Below are positions 6,239 through 18,022 of a stretch of DNA of 20,119 nucleotides, in pieces. The DNA comes from a virus: UHGV virus genome UHGV-0174327. The stretch is one strand, 5' to 3'. The position numbers were made by a program, and so were the translations under genes. Positions within the stretch are counted from its first letter, which is position 1, and every line of letters starts with the position of its first letter. Below the pieces are notes generated by a model that saw nothing but the letters and a program-made list of their open reading frames with translations, was not told the DNA's origin and ran no database searches.

Positions 6239-8005
6239 ATGAACACCACACTGACACCCGCAGATCTCGATCCCCGTCGGCAGGCCATGCTGCTGTACTT
6301 TCAGGGATACCGCGTCGCCCGCATTGCTGAAATGCTGGGCGAGAAAGTTGCAACTGTTCACAGCTGGAAAAAACGCGACAAGTGGGGTGACTATGGGCCG
6401 CTGGATCAGATGCAGCTCACCACCGCCGCACGCTACTGCCAGCTCATTATGAAGGAGCACAAAGAAGGGAAAGATTTCAAAGAGATTGACCTGCTGGCGC
6501 GCCAGTCGGAGCGCCACGCGCGGATCGGCAAGTTTAACAATGGCGGCAACGAAGCCGACTTAAACCCTAACGTCGCCAACCGCAACAAAGGCCCACGCCG
6601 TCAGCCGGAAAAGAATGTTTTCACCGATGAACAGATTGAGAAGCTGGAAGAAATCTTCCATTCCTCCATGTTCAACTACCAGCGCCACTGGTGGGAAGCC
6701 GGAAAAACCAACCGCATCCGCAACCTGCTGAAGTCACGCCAGATCGGCGCAACCTTCTATTTTGCCCGTGAAGCCCTGATTGACGCCCTGCTGACCGGAC
6801 GTAACCAGATTTTCCTTTCCGCCAGCAAGGCACAGGCCCACGTCTTTAAGCAGTACATCTTCGACTTCGCCAAAGAAGTGGAGGTGGAGCTGAAAGGTGA
6901 TCCGATGGTGCTTCCTAACGGTGCCACGCTTTACTTCCTCGGCACCAATGCCCGCACTGCCCAGAGTTATCACGGCAACCTGTATCTGGATGAATATTTC
7001 TGGATACCGAAATTTCAGGAGCTGCGTAAAGTGGCTTCCGGTATGGCTATTCACAAAAAATGGCGACAAACCTATTTTTCCACGCCATCAAGCCTGACCC
7101 ACAGTGCTTATCCGTTCTGGTCCGGTGCGCTGTTCAACCGTGGACGCAACAAAGCCGACAAGGTGGACATCGACCTGTCCCACAGCAATCTGGCCCCCGG
7201 CCTGCTGTGCGCAGACGGGCAATACCGCCAGATAGTCACCGTGGAAGATGCGGTGCGCGGCGGCTGCAACCTGTTCGACCTTGACCAGTTGCGCATGGAG
7301 TACAGCCCGGACGAATACCAGAACCTGCTGATGTGCGAGTTTGTGGACGATCTCGCGTCCGTGTTTCCGCTCAGCGAGCTGCAGGCGTGCATGGTGGACA
7401 GTTGGGAAGTCTGGACCGACTTTCATGCACTGGCCCTTCGCCCGTTTGGGTGGCGCGAAGTGTGGATCGGTTATGACCCGGCAAAAGGTACGCAGAACGG
7501 CGACAGCGCCGGATGCGTGGTGGTGGCACCGCCAGCCGTGCCGGGCGGTAAGTTCCGTATTCTTGAGCGCCACCAGTGGCGCGGGATGGACTTCCGCGCC
7601 CAGGCGGACGCCATCAAAAAACTGACCGAACAGTACAACGTGACATATATCGGCATCGACTCGACGGGTGTCGGTCACGGGGTTTACGAGAACGTGAAAG
7701 CGTTTTTTCCTGCCGTCCGGGAGTTTGTCTACAACCCCAACGTTAAAAATGCCCTGGTACTCAAGGCATACGACATTATCAGCCACCGCCGTCTGGAGTT
7801 TGACGCCGGGCACACCGACATTGCGCAGTCATTCATGGCAATCCGTCGCGCCACCACCGCCAGTGGCAACCGCCCGACCTATGAAGCCAGCCGCAGCGAA
7901 GAAGCCAGCCACGCCGATCTGGCCTGGGCAACGATGCACGCACTGTTTAATGAACCGCTGCAGGGCGAGTCCGCCAATACAAGCAATATTGTGGAGATTT
8001 TTTGA
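6239..8005 (+). CDS. P: terminase large (ATPase) subunit (P2 gpP family)
   Basis: 588 aa; family-typical length and sequence; divergent from O as in P2. Confidence 0.9.
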   Translation: MNTTLTPADLDPRRQAMLLYFQGYRVARIAEMLGEKVATVHSWKKRDKWGDYGPLDQMQLTTAARYCQLIMKEHKEGKDFKEIDLLARQSERHARIGKFNNGGNEADLNPNVANRNKGPRRQPEKNVFTDEQIEKLEEIFHSSMFNYQRHWWEAGKTNRIRNLLKSRQIGATFYFAREALIDALLTGRNQIFLSASKAQAHVFKQYIFDFAKEVEVELKGDPMVLPNGATLYFLGTNARTAQSYHGNLYLDEYFWIPKFQELRKVASGMAIHKKWRQTYFSTPSSLTHSAYPFWSGALFNRGRNKADKVDIDLSHSNLAPGLLCADGQYRQIVTVEDAVRGGCNLFDLDQLRMEYSPDEYQNLLMCEFVDDLASVFPLSELQACMVDSWEVWTDFHALALRPFGWREVWIGYDPAKGTQNGDSAGCVVVAPPAVPGGKFRILERHQWRGMDFRAQADAIKKLTEQYNVTYIGIDSTGVGHGVYENVKAFFPAVREFVYNPNVKNALVLKAYDIISHRRLEFDAGHTDIAQSFMAIRRATTASGNRPTYEASRSEEASHADLAWATMHALFNEPLQGESANTSNIVEIF

Positions 8006-9051
8006 TGGGAAAGAGTAAGAAAAACCGCGCTGCGGCGATGAATCACATCCAGCATAAAAGCCAGACTTCAGCCGAAGCATTCAGCTTCGGCGATCCCGTT
8101 CCTGTTCTGGACCGCCGAGAATTACTGGACTATGTGGAATGCGTACAGATGGACCGTTGGTATGAGCCGCCCGTCAGCTTTGACGGACTGGCGCGCACCT
8201 TCCGCGCCGCCGTGCATCACAGTTCCCCGATTGCAGTAAAGTGCAACATTCTGACCAGTACCTATATCCCTCATCCGCTGCTCAGCCAGCAGGCTTTTTC
8301 GCGTTTTGTGCAGGACTATCTGGTATTTGGTAACGCCTACCTGGAGAAACGCACGAACCGCTTCGGTGAAGTTATCGCCCTTGAACCGACCCTGGCAAAA
8401 TACACCCGACGCGGATTAGACCTGGATACCTACTGGTTTGTGCAATACGGCATGACTACGCAGCCGTATCAGTTCACGAAAGGCAGCATTTTTCATCTGA
8501 TGGAACCGGACATCAACCAGGAGATCTACGGCCTGCCCGGTTATCTTTCTGCCATTCCGTCAGCCCTGCTCAACGAGTCCGCCACGCTGTTCCGCCGCAA
8601 GTATTACATTAACGGCAGTCATGCAGGCTTCATCATGTACATGACCGATGCAGCGCAGAACCAGGAGGATGTGAACAACCTCCGCAATGCGATGAAAAGC
8701 GCCAAAGGTCCTGGTAACTTCCGTAACCTGTTTATGTACTCGCCTAACGGTAAAAAGGACGGGCTTCAGATTATCCCGTTGTCAGAAGTGGCGGCGAAGG
8801 ATGAGTTCCTGAATATCAAGAACGTGAGCCGGGACGACATGATGGCGGCGCATCGTGTGCCGCCACAAATGATGGGGATAATGCCTAATAATGTCGGGGG
8901 GTTTGGGGATGTAGAAAAGGCAAGCCGTGTCTTTGTCCGCAACGAGTTGATACCTCTGCAGAAACGCCTACAGGAACTTAACAACTGGCTGGGCGATGAA
9001 GTTATACGTTTCGAGCCGTACACTTTAGATATTCAGAATGAAAAGAAATAA
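8005..9051 (+). CDS. Q: portal protein (P2 gpQ family)
   Basis: ATG at 8005 overlaps P stop (TGATG); 348 aa; sequence and length fit P2 Q. Confidence 0.9.
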   Translation: MGKSKKNRAAAMNHIQHKSQTSAEAFSFGDPVPVLDRRELLDYVECVQMDRWYEPPVSFDGLARTFRAAVHHSSPIAVKCNILTSTYIPHPLLSQQAFSRFVQDYLVFGNAYLEKRTNRFGEVIALEPTLAKYTRRGLDLDTYWFVQYGMTTQPYQFTKGSIFHLMEPDINQEIYGLPGYLSAIPSALLNESATLFRRKYYINGSHAGFIMYMTDAAQNQEDVNNLRNAMKSAKGPGNFRNLFMYSPNGKKDGLQIIPLSEVAAKDEFLNIKNVSRDDMMAAHRVPPQMMGIMPNNVGGFGDVEKASRVFVRNELIPLQKRLQELNNWLGDEVIRFEPYTLDIQNEKK

Positions 9052-9378: not shown

Positions 9379-9561
9379 CTAAGCTCCGCATTTTTTATCA
9401 TTTGGGGAACATCTTAACCTGCGACATTTGCGGCAATACGATTGAGGGATCAGCCGCTCTCCTTCCATAGTTCTAAAACCAAACACTTCTTCAATTTTGT
9501 TCAAATCACCACTTGCAATAACCCCACAGCAGGGGCAGACAGCCTCAATTTGAAATGCCAT
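9379..9561 (-). CDS. hypothetical ~60-aa zinc-ribbon protein (accessory cassette B, proximal gene)
   Basis: MAFQIEAVCPCCGV...CRKCRRLRC with CxxC...CxxC spacing; ATG at 9561 preceded by GGAGA (spacing 5); ORF-track start 9624 is an upstream extension. Confidence 0.5.
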   Translation of the reverse strand: MAFQIEAVCPCCGVIASGDLNKIEEVFGFRTMEGERLIPQSYCRKCRRLRCSPNDKKCGA

Positions 9562-9660
9562 GTCTATCTCCATTCCACATGTTGAATGTAGGGTAATACT
9601 TCCTTTCAAGCAAAAATGAGACAAGGATCTTGAAACCTAATTTAAACTTGCTTGCGCGCG

Positions 9661-9679
9661 CTCGTATCCCCGCCACGCC
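9661..9679 (-). other. cos-like site (cohesive-end sequence) of the prophage
   Basis: Reverse complement reads GGCGTGGCGGGGATACGAG followed by CGCGCGC; the P2/P4 cohesive end as I recall it is GGCGAGGCGGGGAAAGCAC followed by TGCGCGC (14/19 identical); location downstream of portal Q is where P2 has cos. Confidence 0.45.
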
Positions 9680-9714
9680 TGCCCGCTTTTTGTAGCGATT
9701 TTCATGCAGGTGCA

Positions 9715-9748
9715 TGACATAAGCAAAAGCCCACCAGAACTGGCGGGC
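9715..9748 (-). terminator. rho-independent terminator ending the three-gene cassette A
   Basis: Stem GCCCACCAG/CTGGCGGGC (one mismatch) followed on the minus strand by UUUUGCUU. Confidence 0.4.
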
Positions 9749-9796
9749 CTCAGCAAAAACGATCCTCAAACGATCATGCATATTCATGCGGCATAG

Positions 9797-10306
9797 TCAT
9801 GCAGTGACTTTGGTCTGGTCAGGCGTAGAAAAATCTTCGAAAGATTTATAAGTTTCAGTATCAAATATTGAAATACTCTCAACCTGATCCATTGGGATTA
9901 CATGCCTAAAATGATTTAAGTTCAGTGGAGTTGAGTCTGCTGTAATATTTTTACTAAGGTAAAGTTCATAGTAACGATGCTGCTCATGGTATCTGAGCGT
10001 ATCTTTATCACGATAACCACTGATGTATGGTATGAGAGCCAGATGCTGAGTTTCCTGATGCTCCATCCGAGGAGCAGCTACGTAACCAATGTAAACTTTT
10101 CTGGATTTTAGCGTAACAAAGATGAGCTTACCTTCATCTATAGCCTGAACTAACAGTGACTCAATTCCATCTTGAGCTGCCATCTCGCGATATGCAGATT
10201 GACGAATCTCTTCGTTTTCTATTGCTCTTCGCGCATTGTTACCTTGGTCATAAGCAATAAACACCGCAAGCAGCATAGACAACACAAAGAACAATGGGTA
10301 AGACAT
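9797..10306 (-). CDS. hypothetical ~169-aa protein with N-terminal TM helix and soluble C-terminal domain (cassette A, gene 3)
   Basis: MSYPLFFVLSMLLAVFIAY then hydrophilic domain; start at ATG 10306 five nt after the gene-2 stop (ORF-track 10342 is a GTG extension overlapping gene 2); AT-rich. Confidence 0.55.
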   Translation of the reverse strand: MSYPLFFVLSMLLAVFIAYDQGNNARRAIENEEIRQSAYREMAAQDGIESLLVQAIDEGKLIFVTLKSRKVYIGYVAAPRMEHQETQHLALIPYISGYRDKDTLRYHEQHRYYELYLSKNITADSTPLNLNHFRHVIPMDQVESISIFDTETYKSFEDFSTPDQTKVTA

Positions 10307-10311
10307 TATCT

Positions 10312-10578
10312 TTACGTCTGTGAGCCATGAATAAAAGTCCACATGTAACTTAGGCCAAAAATAACCAAAAAATTGATAACTGAGCTTATAACTAGCAAGG
10401 TAACGAATGTAACAGCCATCAGAGTAAACCCCTGAATAGCAAACTTACAACCATGCATAGCTACATAAAAATAGGAATTCCAACCATTACTTCTTGCTTG
10501 CCTGATGCGGGACTGGTAATGATTTTCGGTGTACCAGAACCCGCAAACCAGGACGACCATGATAACTAAGGGTCCCAT
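10312..10578 (-). CDS. hypothetical 88-aa integral membrane protein, two predicted TM segments (cassette A, gene 2)
   Basis: PLVIMVVLVCGFWY and FTLMAVTFVTLLVISSVINFLVIFGLSYMW hydrophobic stretches; start coupled to gene-1 stop (AAGGATGAGGAATG). Confidence 0.55.
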   Translation of the reverse strand: MGPLVIMVVLVCGFWYTENHYQSRIRQARSNGWNSYFYVAMHGCKFAIQGFTLMAVTFVTLLVISSVINFLVIFGLSYMWTFIHGSQT

Positions 10579-10581
10579 TCC

Positions 10582-10782
10582 TCATCCTTGTCGTTTTGCA
10601 GCCAATTCTTCCATTCTGGCACGCATTGATTCACGTACCTGCTTATTGTTCATGTTTAAGGTCGCCGCACCATTAGCATCTGTGATAATTTTACTATTAT
10701 CAGACTGTTGCACATCCTGACGGATGACATCCTGCATAATCTTACCTGGTGCAGAGAGAACTTTGCGCAGAAGTTCAGACAT
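10582..10782 (-). CDS. hypothetical 66-aa hydrophilic protein (cassette A, gene 1)
   Basis: MSELLRKVLSAPGKIMQDVIRQ...; ATG at 10782 preceded by AAGGAGG (spacing 5); ORF-track start 10857 is an upstream extension. Confidence 0.5.
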   Translation of the reverse strand: MSELLRKVLSAPGKIMQDVIRQDVQQSDNSKIITDANGAATLNMNNKQVRESMRARMEELAAKRQG

Positions 10783-10835
10783 ATTTTCCTCCTTATGCCT
10801 CAAACGCCACGGATTGTGGTGCATGGAAGCTGTCA

Positions 10836-10880
10836 TCTTATGATTATAGGACAACAAAAATACGAAACTATTCGAAGAGT
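10836..10880 (-). promoter_or_regulatory. candidate sigma70 promoter for cassette A (perfect TATAAT -10 on minus strand at 10848..10843)
   Basis: Minus strand reads ...ttgttgtccTATAATcataag...; -35 is weak (TAGTTT); about 55-nt leader to the ATG at 10782. Confidence 0.3.
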
Positions 10881-11001: not shown

Positions 11002-11232
11002 CTAATGTAACCAGCTGTCGTCTTCCCACACCTTCTGCATAATTTTCATCACTTGCTTCCTTTCTTCGTCCAGTTGCAGTCCGGTCAGTTCCACACCGTT
11101 AGAGCTACCTTTGCGGATACGAATTACCGTTTTGGGATACAGGGGGCGCAGATTGCGGTAAAGCTCGGATTCAAGGGCGTCCAGTGTAGACTGGCTAATC
11201 TTCTGCTCTTTATCGATCATTATTTCAATGCG
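11002..11232 (-). CDS. dinI: DinI-family protein (SOS-regulated RecA modulator homologue)
   Basis: MRIEIMIDKEQKISQSTLDALESELYRNLRPLYPKTVIRIRKGSSNGVELTGLQLDEERKQVMKIMQKVWEDDSWLH parallels E. coli DinI (MRIEVTIAK...WESADDW) as recalled; SD GAGGTGA; downstream of a LexA box. Confidence 0.7.
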   Translation of the reverse strand, partial: RIEIMIDKEQKISQSTLDALESELYRNLRPLYPKTVIRIRKGSSNGVELTGLQLDEERKQVMKIMQKVWEDDSWLH

Positions 11233-11245
11233 CATAAAAGTCACC

Positions 11246-11434
11246 TCAGCTGATGACATCCATTGAGCGGTTGTATTCGTGGGTTCTGATTTTTGCCATG
11301 AGTTCATCTGTTAGTTCAGAAACCCACTGCAAAGCCAGCCCCTTCTCTTCATCACTACACTCACTAGCCGCTACAAGCTTAAGAAAAAAATCAATGCGCT
11401 GGAGCTTCAAAGACTCCAAAAAATAGTCCTGCAT
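11246..11434 (-). CDS. hypothetical 62-aa protein, first gene of the LexA-controlled operon (possible Tum-like antirepressor, speculative)
   Basis: ATG at 11434 preceded by AGGAGGAAAG; about 45 nt downstream of a canonical LexA box; position corresponds to the 186 tum locus. Confidence 0.45.
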   Translation of the reverse strand: MQDYFLESLKLQRIDFFLKLVAASECSDEEKGLALQWVSELTDELMAKIRTHEYNRSMDVIS

Positions 11435-11474
11435 CTTTCCTCCTATGACACCAAAGCAATACTGTATACATAAC

Positions 11475-11494
11475 CACTGTTTATATTTACAGTA
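11475..11494. promoter_or_regulatory. LexA operator (SOS box) overlapping the promoter of the 62-aa/dinI-like operon
   Basis: CTGT-ttatattt-ACAG (11477..11492) fits CTGT-N8-ACAG with AT-rich spacer; a weaker overlapping CTGT-N8-CCAC half-match at 11462..11477; TATACT -10-like hexamer adjacent on minus strand. Confidence 0.6.
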
Positions 11495-11586
11495 TATAAT
11501 AATCTTACTGATGTAAAACGTTTTTTTACGTTCATCAGCCTGATATGCCTGGTATTATTAAGAGCACGAATTGTTAACCCGCGTAA

Positions 11587-11943
11587 TTAATACAGGTTCC
11601 GCCACTTATCATCTTCCTTCAGACGCTGGTTCCGATAGAAGATACGCAGGCCTGCTCCTGACGGAATACTGCCACCGCGAAGGAGTAAATCGACCTCTTT
11701 CTCGCTGCCATCAAATCCTCTGGACTTCAGTTCATAGACGAGCTGCTGTCGTTGATGGTCTGTAATTCGCTGTTTGTAGTCTCTACGCCGTTTCGGTTTC
11801 ACCAGGCGTAACCTTACAGCCAGCTCCCGGCGCTCTTTTTTGTTCATACTGTGCAGAAAATCGTGCAACTCCTTGTCATCCATGCGGGTAATATCCGTTC
11901 TGGTGTCCCCATCAGCTGATTTATCTTTCTCCTGTTGGTTCAA
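11587..11943 (-). CDS. hypothetical basic protein downstream of and overlapping replication gene A; start uncertain (TTG 11943, or ATG 11883)
   Basis: Lys/Arg-rich ([22 protein letters not shown]); no strong SD at any candidate start; conserved position after A in P2-like phages. Confidence 0.4.
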
Positions 11944-14027
11944 ATTTTCAGCAAGGGGACAGTTATTGCCACGAGTCCAAGGGGACAGTTATTGCCACGA
12001 GTCCAAGGGGCGCAAGCGCCCTGGTCGGCTGCCGCCTCCTGAACGTCAACGGCCTTACGAACCATTTTCCACTTCACTGCATGAGTGCAGATCTTGCCCT
12101 CTGCAATGGGTGACCAGATGCCATAAATACGAATACCGTGATCACCATAGGCGGTCGGCTCTTCGTTGATTTCATAAGCGGTTCTGATCAAGTGATATTT
12201 GCGGGGAACCAACACGCCGCCCTGCTTCATAATGTAGGTGGCAAAACAGCCAGCATCAGCAGCAGCCAGAATGGCATCAAGACGCGGATCATCCAGTACC
12301 GGCGCACCTGCTTTTTTGTCACCCTGCTGCCTTGCCGCCTGACCAGCCAGCAATCGCAGTTCACGGTAAGCCTGACGCCCCGGAATGCCAAAGAAGCGGA
12401 ATTGCTGAACACGATGCAGAGACGCCCAGGCATTAACGTATTCAGCGTTATCACGCAGGGATTTACCCGTTTCCTTGCTGATCTCGCCAGCCAGACCACG
12501 CCCGTCAATGTTCTTACTGATGTATTTCGCGATGTAGCTTGTCGGCGTTCCTTTGCGCGGGTTAATCAGCTCAGACTTAAAGCGTGGCCCCGTGTTATTG
12601 CCCAGTTCCTCGCGGTCTTCACGGATGGCAAACTTACGCAGTAATGCAGTGATGGCGCGGCGGTCTTTTTTACGCATGAAGCACATGAGATGCCAGTGCA
12701 CAGTACCGTCATGATGCGGCTCAGCCACCCGCACGCCATACCACCGCAATCCGGCTTTGTGCATCGCCTTACGAAATGCAGCAAACATGCCGACCAGATA
12801 ATCACTGCTTTGTCTTACCGTCGCATTTGTCCAGGTCGGGTTTGGTCTGCCGTTATTGAGCGTGGAATGGAAACGTGACGGACAGGTGATGGTGTAGAAA
12901 ACGGCGCAGTCACCGCGCATTTCCGCGATAAGCTCCAGACCTTTAACGCAGGCCATCATCTCATTGCGGCGATGTGCCGGGTTGCTGCTGCTGGCGTTTA
13001 CCACATCTTCCATATCCAGCGTGTCTCCGTCTTCGTTCACCAGTTCATGAGAACGGAAAAACTCCAGCGACTTGCGGCGCTGCTCACGTTTATGCGTCAC
13101 TGCTTCATAGCTGACATAGGGAGATGCTTTTTTGCTGACCAGACAGACAGCACGCAACTGCTCTTCCCGCCATTCGCAACGCATCTTCCACAATTTTCGA
13201 TACCACCAGTCGGCGCAAAGCATACGTGCCAGCGAACCCGGTATGAGTTCATAGGGCACAGGTTTGCGGCGGTTTCTTTTCCGACGAAGTTTCTCAAACG
13301 CAGGCGGGATAACATCCAGACGCAGGGTTTCCGCAGCCACCTTTTCCCATGTCTTGCGGATTTCTTCTGGCTTAACGTCATCGGTGGCGTACAAATCACC
13401 ACAAGCGGCCTCAAGACACATGCTCATATGCGCTGCTACCAGGGTGGACAGGCGTTTCACCTGATCCTGGCTCATTTCAGGCAGGATCAGCAGCCCCTCC
13501 AGCCCTTGATGGCTTGCCATAAAACGGAAAGAAACAGATAGCTGACTGTCACGTACACAATCCAGTCGCTCCAGACATGGCTTAATCGTCTCACGCAAAT
13601 AGCGGGAATAAGCCTTTGGCCTGCCCAGGCTGCTGAAGTATTCGATACGTTGCATCAGCGGCTTGCTGATATGAGAAGGCTGGGCGCTGACATCTGCCAG
13701 AATGACCATGTCCGGGTTAAAACGCTGCTGCTCATGCGCCAGCTTTGCCCGGCTAATGAGCTTATCCTGCTCCATTTCGCGCTGGACAGGATCACGGGAT
13801 TCATTAAAGAAATAACGCTCCCAGACCTGCTCACTCAGTGCCTCGCGGCGCAGTTGTTCCTGCTCGTTATCGGCAGCGTACAGAGTGATCAGGTTTGAAA
13901 GTGCAGACTCCGGCGCAACTTCCGCCGGATCCAGATAAGGGTTAATGGCCTTTTTCGGGCCGTTCCATGAAAATGCTGCGGCAGCCTCGTTAAAGCCGCT
14001 AGAGTTGCTCATATCGTCATGACTCAT
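11940..14027 (-). CDS. A: replication initiation endonuclease (P2/186 gpA family, rolling-circle initiator)
   Basis: 695 aa, size and sequence consistent with 186/P2 A; ATG at 14027 overlaps dam stop (ATGA). Confidence 0.85.
11952..12010. repeat. tandem direct repeat, 26 bp x 2.3 (CAAGGGGACAGTTATTGCCACGAGTC) inside the 3' end of gene A
   Basis: Copies at 11952..11977 and 11978..12003 are identical; partial third copy CAAGGGG at 12004..12010, followed by palindrome GGGCGCaaGCGCCC. Confidence 0.85.
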
Positions 14028-17057: not shown

Positions 17058-17627
17058 ATGAATTTGGAGAAAGGCGGACGAGGCGCTATAGAGCGCATGG
17101 TAGAAGCTTATGGATTCAAGACTCGACAGGCGTTGTGCGATCATTTAGGAATCTCTAAAAGTACACTCGCCACACGCTACATGCGTGACTCATTCCCAGC
17201 AGAATGGGTAATCCAGTGCGCCCTTGAAACAGGCACCTCGCTTAATTGGCTCACAACCGGGCATGGTTCAAAGCAAACTTCAGGTAATACAAATACTATG
17301 GAAGTTGCTAAATATGTATTATCTGATGGGGCCTTGTGTGAAGACGGTTTTTATATTTTCGATAGAGAATTTCTACCGTCGGCATTCAAGAATCTTTTTG
17401 TAATCACAGATAATAATTCTGAATTTATTTGTGATAAGGAATTTGATGATATACGTGATGGTAAATGGGTAATAAGTATTGATGGCGAAATAACGATCCG
17501 TGACATTACTCGTTTACCCGGTGGAAGAATCTTCGTCGAGGGTGGAAACAGAGCCTTCGAATGCAAGATAGAAGATATTGAAATAATTGGTAAAATTATA
17601 AGTTTAACAGTCAAGTATGTTAAATAG
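17058..17627 (+). CDS. cI: CI immunity repressor (186-type; N-terminal HTH domain plus AT-rich C-terminal domain)
   Basis: MNLEKGGRGAIERMVEAYGFKTRQALCDHLGISKSTLATRYMRDSFPAEWVIQCALETGTSLNWLTTGHG N-terminal HTH; ATG 17058 preceded by GGAG; about 189 aa. Confidence 0.7.
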   Translation: MNLEKGGRGAIERMVEAYGFKTRQALCDHLGISKSTLATRYMRDSFPAEWVIQCALETGTSLNWLTTGHGSKQTSGNTNTMEVAKYVLSDGALCEDGFYIFDREFLPSAFKNLFVITDNNSEFICDKEFDDIRDGKWVISIDGEITIRDITRLPGGRIFVEGGNRAFECKIEDIEIIGKIISLTVKYVK

Positions 17628-17642
17628 TACCGGGAGGAAATT

Positions 17643-17834
17643 ATGCTTGGTAAGGTATTTTTTGTGGTTTTGTCATGTTCTTTGTTATTAAACCCACTAG
17701 CTACCTATGCTAGAAATTATCCCTGCTCAGGGAAAAAGGGAGGTGTTTCTCACTGTACCTCTGATGGCAAATTCGTTTGCAATGATGGAACTATTAGTAA
17801 ATCCAAAAAAATCTGTACTAAAAACTCACGATAA
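17643..17834 (+). CDS. small secreted cysteine-rich protein (signal peptide plus ~40-aa Lys/Cys-rich mature part) co-transcribed with cI
   Basis: [23 protein letters not shown] signal-peptide-like N-terminus; 4 Cys in mature region; strong SD GGGAGG 6 nt upstream; AT-rich. Confidence 0.5.
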
Positions 17835-18022
17835 CTTTTGCTTTTATATCTGCGCCTAAAATAAAAATGAGCCACAGGTTAACCGCAAAAGTTACATGCT
17901 CACATAGCAAAAAGAATAGCCTACTTCATTATGGCTTCAGTGAGATGTATGGTCGCAGGATTTCATACATTGACACTGGTTATACATACAGTAAAAATGC
18001 TCTCTATTGGAGGGCATTTTTT

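Follow-up and report, generated by a model that had tools for sequence, protein, structure and literature searches.

Tum in two cistrons: the likely SOS-induction switch of a Fels-2-type prophage of Escherichia coli

Phage 186 carries, just after replication gene A, an SOS operon in which the LexA-controlled promoter p95 drives tum. The Tum protein is a single polypeptide of 146 aa, with additional DinI-only products arising from internal starts. Full-length 186 Tum binds the immunity repressor CI and prevents it from binding to its operators, according to the summary of Shearwin et al. (1998) given in PMC3121763. Tum resembles an antirepressor fused to DinI, and its coding region is split in two in phages Fels-2 and PSP3 (Lemire et al. 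2011, PMC3121763). The upstream gene of PSP3 is credited with antirepressor activity in a passage of PMC3121763 that cites Bunny et al. (2002) and a personal communication. The PSP3 record describes tumA as "similar to 5' end 186 tum; UV induction of prophage" and tumB as "similar to dinI and 3' end of 186 tum", and the Fels-2 record refers to PSP3 TumB. A search of the literature on the names TumA, TumB and PSP3 returned no match. In the dinI-gfoA and dinI-gftA operons, a DinI homologue and a small repressor-binding antirepressor are likewise under joint LexA control, but the gene order is reversed, with dinI first, and these operons reside in the lambdoid Gifsy prophages (PMC3121763).

The nearest studied relative of the locus described here is prophage DuoHS of E. 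coli HS. The "tum" deletion of the Phollow study removed ECHS_RS04495 (PMC12055606; preprint PMC11195241), a 189-bp "hypothetical protein" gene directly upstream of a DinI-like gene, ECHS_RS04500. After treatment with mitomycin C, the DuoHS Δtum strain shows neither lysis nor viral foci, and the host SOS reporter still responds; lexA(Ind-) likewise blocks DuoHS induction, indicating that cleavable LexA is required (PMC12055606, PMC11195241). The published deletion primers, named NHR24 and NHR28, carry the junctions GTGGTGTCATAGGAGGAAAGATG followed by TGA and ATAGGAGGAAAGATG followed by TGAGGTGACTTTTATGCGCATTG (PMC12055606, PMC11195241). These sequences indicate that Δtum is a precise ATG-TGA fusion of the tumA ORF that leaves the DinI-like gene intact. 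In principle, the deletion could also reduce translation of this downstream gene.

The window, a 20,119-nt stretch of viral DNA (UHGV-0174327), is a P2/186-like prophage (Peduoviridae, Fels-2-type) of E. coli inserted beside rcdA. It carries the 186-type switch genes cI, cII and fil together with an Apl-like gene, and its gene order and rcdA-side attachment region are the same as in DuoHS. The module between gene A and the downstream cargo genes (Table 1) is very probably the SOS-induction switch of this Fels-2/DuoHS-type prophage, with Tum encoded as two cistrons, tumA and tumB. The 750 bp around the SOS operon are 100% identical to several E. coli chromosomes and 97.5% identical to Salmonella phage Fels-2. 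Of 5426 complete E. coli genomes, 1125 (about 21%) contain the module at a DNA identity of at least 80%.

Table 1 Features of the SOS operon and the immunity repressor gene in the window
Feature	Position	Strand	Basis
-35 hexamer TTTACA of the p95-like SOS promoter	11512..11517	-	read from sequence
-10 hexamer TACTGT, doubling as left half of the LexA box	11489..11494	-	sequence
LexA operator (SOS box) TACTGTAAATATAAACAGTG	11475..11494	.	17/20 to consensus; overlaps -10
Shine-Dalgarno sequence AGGAGG of tumA	11439..11444	-	sequence
tumA, predicted 62-aa antirepressor, homologue of the N-terminal half of Tum	11246..11434	-	profile homology
tumB, 77-aa DinI-like protein, homologue of the C-terminal half of Tum	11002..11235	-	Pfam, identity to Tum
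cI, 186-type immunity repressor, presumed target of TumA	17058..17627	+	identity to 186 CI

The SOS promoter and its LexA operator

The CTGT-N8-ACAG core of a LexA operator occurs only once in the window, at 11477..11492. Because at least one match to this pattern is also found in 22 of 100 shuffled sequences, the core alone is weak evidence for an operator. When the full 20-mer TACTGTAAATATAAACAGTG is scored against the 20-bp LexA (SOS) operator consensus of gamma-proteobacteria, it matches at 17 positions, a score that none of the 100 shuffled sequences reaches. The operator overlaps the -10 hexamer, so that an earlier note made from the sequence, which had placed a LexA operator over a promoter at this site, is borne out. 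The -10 hexamer is the same as the annotated one of 186 p95 and is invariant across four divergent promoters. The -35 hexamer is unchanged in Fels-2 and E. coli HS and lies 17 nt from the -10 hexamer in the window. The annotated design of 186 p95, TTCACA-18-TACTGT with the LexA site over the -10 hexamer, is alike, and the promoter of the window was identified by comparison with it. A generic promoter scan reported no promoter at the SOS operon because TACTGT fits TATAAT at just three of six positions.

In seven loci, drawn from six different prophages or phages, a conserved LexA box precedes the tumA homologue. Its position relative to this gene is the same in Fels-2, E. coli HS, 186, ESSI2_ev015 and Yersinia phage YenM_06.16-2, despite protein identities of only 16-44%. 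The window, DuoHS and Fels-2 agree in every base of the LexA box and of the -35 and -10 hexamers; elsewhere the leader shows a few base differences. About 45 nt of leader separate the operator from the AGGAGG sequence of tumA. This leader contains a second LexA-like right half-site, TACAGTA (11460..11466, minus strand), 10 bp downstream of the LexA box. The half-site is retained in HS and Fels-2, with varying bases before it, and the corresponding 20-mer of the window, CAGTGGTTATGTATACAGTA, matches the consensus at 15 of 20 positions by manual count, its left half being damaged. It could be a weak second operator or merely part of the transcribed leader.

By this architecture, LexA bound to the operator would keep the p95-like promoter off in the lysogen. 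Upon DNA damage, RecA would be activated, LexA would cleave itself and the promoter would fire. The effect of lexA(Ind-) in DuoHS, where the operator is identical, points indirectly to such SOS-dependent derepression at the operator of the window. The proposal that this module is the counterpart of the LexA-controlled p95/tum operon of 186 holds, given the same promoter architecture and the homologies of the two proteins described below.

TumA and TumB as counterparts of the two halves of Tum

The tumA gene is the first gene behind the LexA-box promoter and lies just after replication gene A, a layout common to 186, Fels-2, HS and PSP3. The ORF and its strong Shine-Dalgarno sequence were correctly placed in the earlier note, which regarded the 62-aa product as unrecognisable. 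The protein looked so because Pfam and NCBIfam searches return no model for it and because its alignment with 186 Tum, proposed at that time, yields nothing by plain BLASTP. The same comparison by hhalign is positive: a profile of the TumA family, built from 29 diverse sequences, aligns with residues 5-44 of 186 Tum with a probability of 95.3% and an E-value of 2.2e-8. Furthermore, the 62-aa protein and the N-terminal part of 186 Tum match the same three PHROG families, namely phrog_698 (E-values of 3.6e-38 and 2.7e-5, respectively), phrog_8554 (2.4e-8 and 1.4e-11) and phrog_1993 (2e-3 and 1.4e-22). Intermediates bridge TumA and Tum in the alignment, among them a 60-aa protein of Yersinia phage YenM_06.16-2 named "tum protein". 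The homology between TumA and the N-terminal region of Tum thus rests on profile methods, since plain BLASTP is negative. TumA of the window is identical to the DuoHS tum product at 61 of 62 residues, the exception being T51, which is S in HS, and is 98% identical to the small protein of Fels-2 (gene pair STM2728/STM2726.1). TumA of PSP3 is very divergent, with 14% identity to TumA of the window, and its hhalign comparison with the window family gives a probability of 8.6%, which is not significant.

Members of the TumA family are 55-75 aa long and well conserved. Conservation of the 62-aa ORF, on which the earlier note had made its reading depend, was checked, and the ORF is intact across Escherichia, Salmonella, Klebsiella, Yersinia, Pectobacterium and others. 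The AlphaFold2 model of TumA is a helical hairpin consisting of helices 2-23 and 28-61, with a mean pLDDT of 88. A sequence search of the PDB with the TumA family profile gave no match, and a Foldseek search of the PDB with the model retrieved generic helical hairpins only, all with E-values above 0.8. It is conceivable, though rather unlikely, that the helical-hairpin family inhibits CI in a way not yet described. All three PHROG families are labelled "unknown function", and the RefSeq name of tumA is "hypothetical protein" in the E. coli records examined. Some phage records and one UniRef entry label tumA as "levan regulatory (domain) protein", an apparent misannotation.

The downstream gene had been assigned to the DinI family with a start at 11232. 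The family assignment stands, with a match of the product to Pfam PF06183 (DinI) over positions 1-63 of the 63-position profile (E-value of 6.6e-23; 81.3 bits against a cut-off of 24.2), and the start is corrected to an ATG at 11235..11233, which gives 77 aa. TumB also matches phrog_189, "RecA filament binding protein DinI" (E-value of 1.5e-29), and is 41% identical to residues 71-145 of 186 Tum (E-value of 3e-24). Its score against NCBIfam NF007893, the equivalog model of host DinI, is 42.7 bits. Because this is far under the cut-off of 111, TumB is a phage DinI-like paralogue and not the chromosomal DinI. The DNA of strain 13TMH22 is 100% identical to the window across tumB, and the encoded protein, WP_001217575.1, is shared with E. 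coli HS; the DinI-like protein of DuoHS is accordingly the same RefSeq protein as that of the window.

Because the 62-aa ORF corresponds to the N-terminal half of Tum and the DinI gene to its C-terminal half, the module of the window is Tum split in two. A single full-length Tum of 146 aa is absent, as the earlier note had stated: the two ORFs do not share a frame and are set apart by a stop codon and a 10-nt spacer. Behind the A gene, PSP3 and Fels-2 likewise encode a small protein followed by a DinI-like one, although in PSP3 the two genes are in frame and one stop codon separates them. With 186 the window shares the LexA box over the TACTGT hexamer, the position after gene A and a CI of the 186 type.

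Firing of the promoter would then yield two separate small proteins. TumA, by analogy with 186 Tum, would bind the 186-type CI and block its binding to the operators, thereby releasing the early lytic promoter. CI of the window is 33% identical to 186 CI (E-value of 8e-38) and identical to DuoHS CI at all 189 residues. In the light of the biochemistry of 186, CI is presumably the target of TumA, and TumA probably binds it directly in the phage of the window as well. The need for tumA in SOS induction, published for the DuoHS gene, is expected to extend to the nearly identical copy of the window. The earlier note had considered that the prophage may use a different, compact antirepressor. It is indeed compact, and the same ORF is required for induction in DuoHS. 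It is not of a different kind, being the counterpart of the N-terminal half of Tum. TumA-like genes also stand behind a LexA box with no adjacent DinI gene in ESSI-2-like and Yersinia phages, and the 77-aa ORF downstream in YenM_06.16-2 is not DinI-like. Such phages fit TumA being an active and self-sufficient antirepressor module.

TumB is the counterpart of the C-terminal half of Tum and of the short internal 186 Tum products annotated as modulating SOS induction. One of the latter, a 76-aa product in the 186 record, covers the same region as TumB and is annotated as a modulator of SOS induction. TumB most probably targets RecA filaments, not CI, and modulates the SOS signal, with membership of the DinI family suggesting that it binds these filaments. 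It is rather unlikely, though conceivable, that TumB does more than this, either forming a non-covalent two-piece Tum together with TumA or setting the threshold and duration of induction. If it does, splitting of the gene would let the phage tune the ratio of the two activities.

Since the two ORFs together span both halves of Tum and two other genes of the window do carry frameshifts, the pair might be thought a dead remnant of a full-length 186-type tum, a pseudogene split by mutation. This is very improbable. The split form, with neither ORF broken, recurs in 68 phage records and, by DNA comparison, in about 1100 E. coli genomes. The DinI cistron is equipped with a separate ATG and a separate GAGG ribosome-binding site, the latter inside the spacer after tumA. 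Family members that are 35-73% identical share their length and helix pattern with the 62-aa protein, and the Δtum phenotype contradicts a dead gene, as the DuoHS copy is functional.

The earlier note had also raised another SOS-linked function for the module, such as modulation of RecA. There is scarcely any likelihood that the module merely modulates SOS or RecA through the DinI-like protein and that the 62-aa ORF is unrelated to prophage induction. The DinI family assignment is well supported and the 62-aa protein has no Pfam or NCBIfam model, as such a role would have it, but the homology of this protein to the antirepressor half of Tum speaks against it, as does the loss of induction by mitomycin C, with the SOS reporter still responding, when the 62-aa ORF alone is deleted in DuoHS.

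Least credible of all is programmed recoding, by frameshifting or stop read-through, into a Tum-like fusion as the real antirepressor. In its favour, about 24 open codons precede the DinI ATG in the same frame and extend back to an ATG at 11307, which gives a +1-frame overlap with the end of tumA, and a stop codon is all that parts the PSP3 genes. Against it, the frame offset differs among relatives (+1 in the window, HS and Fels-2; +2 in ST512-KPC3phi13.6 and SEN8; 0 in MLG42 and PSP3), so that no single recoding route is conserved, the tumA/DinI overlap shows no canonical slippery site when read by eye, the local hairpin is no more stable than shuffled sequence (z of -0.69), and phages with TumA alone exist. 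This hairpin (11240..11257), which covers the stop codon of tumA and the ribosome-binding site of tumB, was also considered as an element of translational coupling or a terminator and was dropped in view of the same z-score.

The prophage copy and the meaning of the split operon

Besides the one residue of TumA, the window differs from DuoHS in having a frameshifted replication gene A and different downstream cargo genes. Gene A, on the minus strand, is frameshifted by a perfect 26-bp tandem duplication (2.3 copies, 100% match) at 11952..12010. It consists of a 695-aa ORF (11940..14027) and an out-of-frame 118-aa ORF (11587..11943), compared with a single protein of 790-809 aa in E. coli HS, 13TMH22 and Fels-2. 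A likeness of the 695-aa product to the 694-aa A protein of 186 was ruled out, as 186 A aligns beyond the frameshift point. Because even 186 A retains the C-terminal part that the frameshift removes, the prophage copy in the window may be replication-defective; judged from its sequence, it perhaps yields no phage even with an intact SOS switch.

The spot between the SOS operon and gene Q is variable, and its cargo differs among relatives. It encodes a TIR-domain protein in 13TMH22, a Hypoth_Ymh-domain protein in vB_EcoM-813R9 and a 243-aa hypothetical protein in Fels-2. The last equals 186 orf97 in length; orf97 belongs to the SOS operon of 186 and is absent from the window. The cargo ORFs of the window (9379..10857), between tumB and the portal gene (8002..9051), have no match in Pfam or PADLOC. 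One 260-aa cargo ORF is split there by a one-base homopolymer difference into pieces of 88 aa and 181 aa (10312..10578 and 9797..10342, minus strand), where a run of six T on the minus strand at about 10367..10372 corresponds to seven in 13TMH22. Either a genuine mutation or a sequencing error in the homopolymer could account for the six-T run. The interval between cI and int (17627..17867) contains only a 63-aa ORF (17643..17834) in the window and E. coli HS, and 13TMH22 carries a pair of an AAA-ATPase gene and a DUF4276 gene at this spot (L007 2782..4515). This differing content suggests a second variable cargo site of Fels-2-type prophages.

The split tumA/tumB SOS operon of Fels-2/PSP3-type phages is already known, and its presence in the window is a real but ordinary finding. 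It brings little new biology, as the split operon has been described before and work on E. coli HS has established that induction depends on the same ORF. Its practical value is in annotation: about one-fifth of complete E. coli genomes carry a module whose antirepressor is covered by neither Pfam nor NCBIfam. With a family model named TumA, it would be possible to predict the SOS-inducibility of P2-like prophages from sequence.
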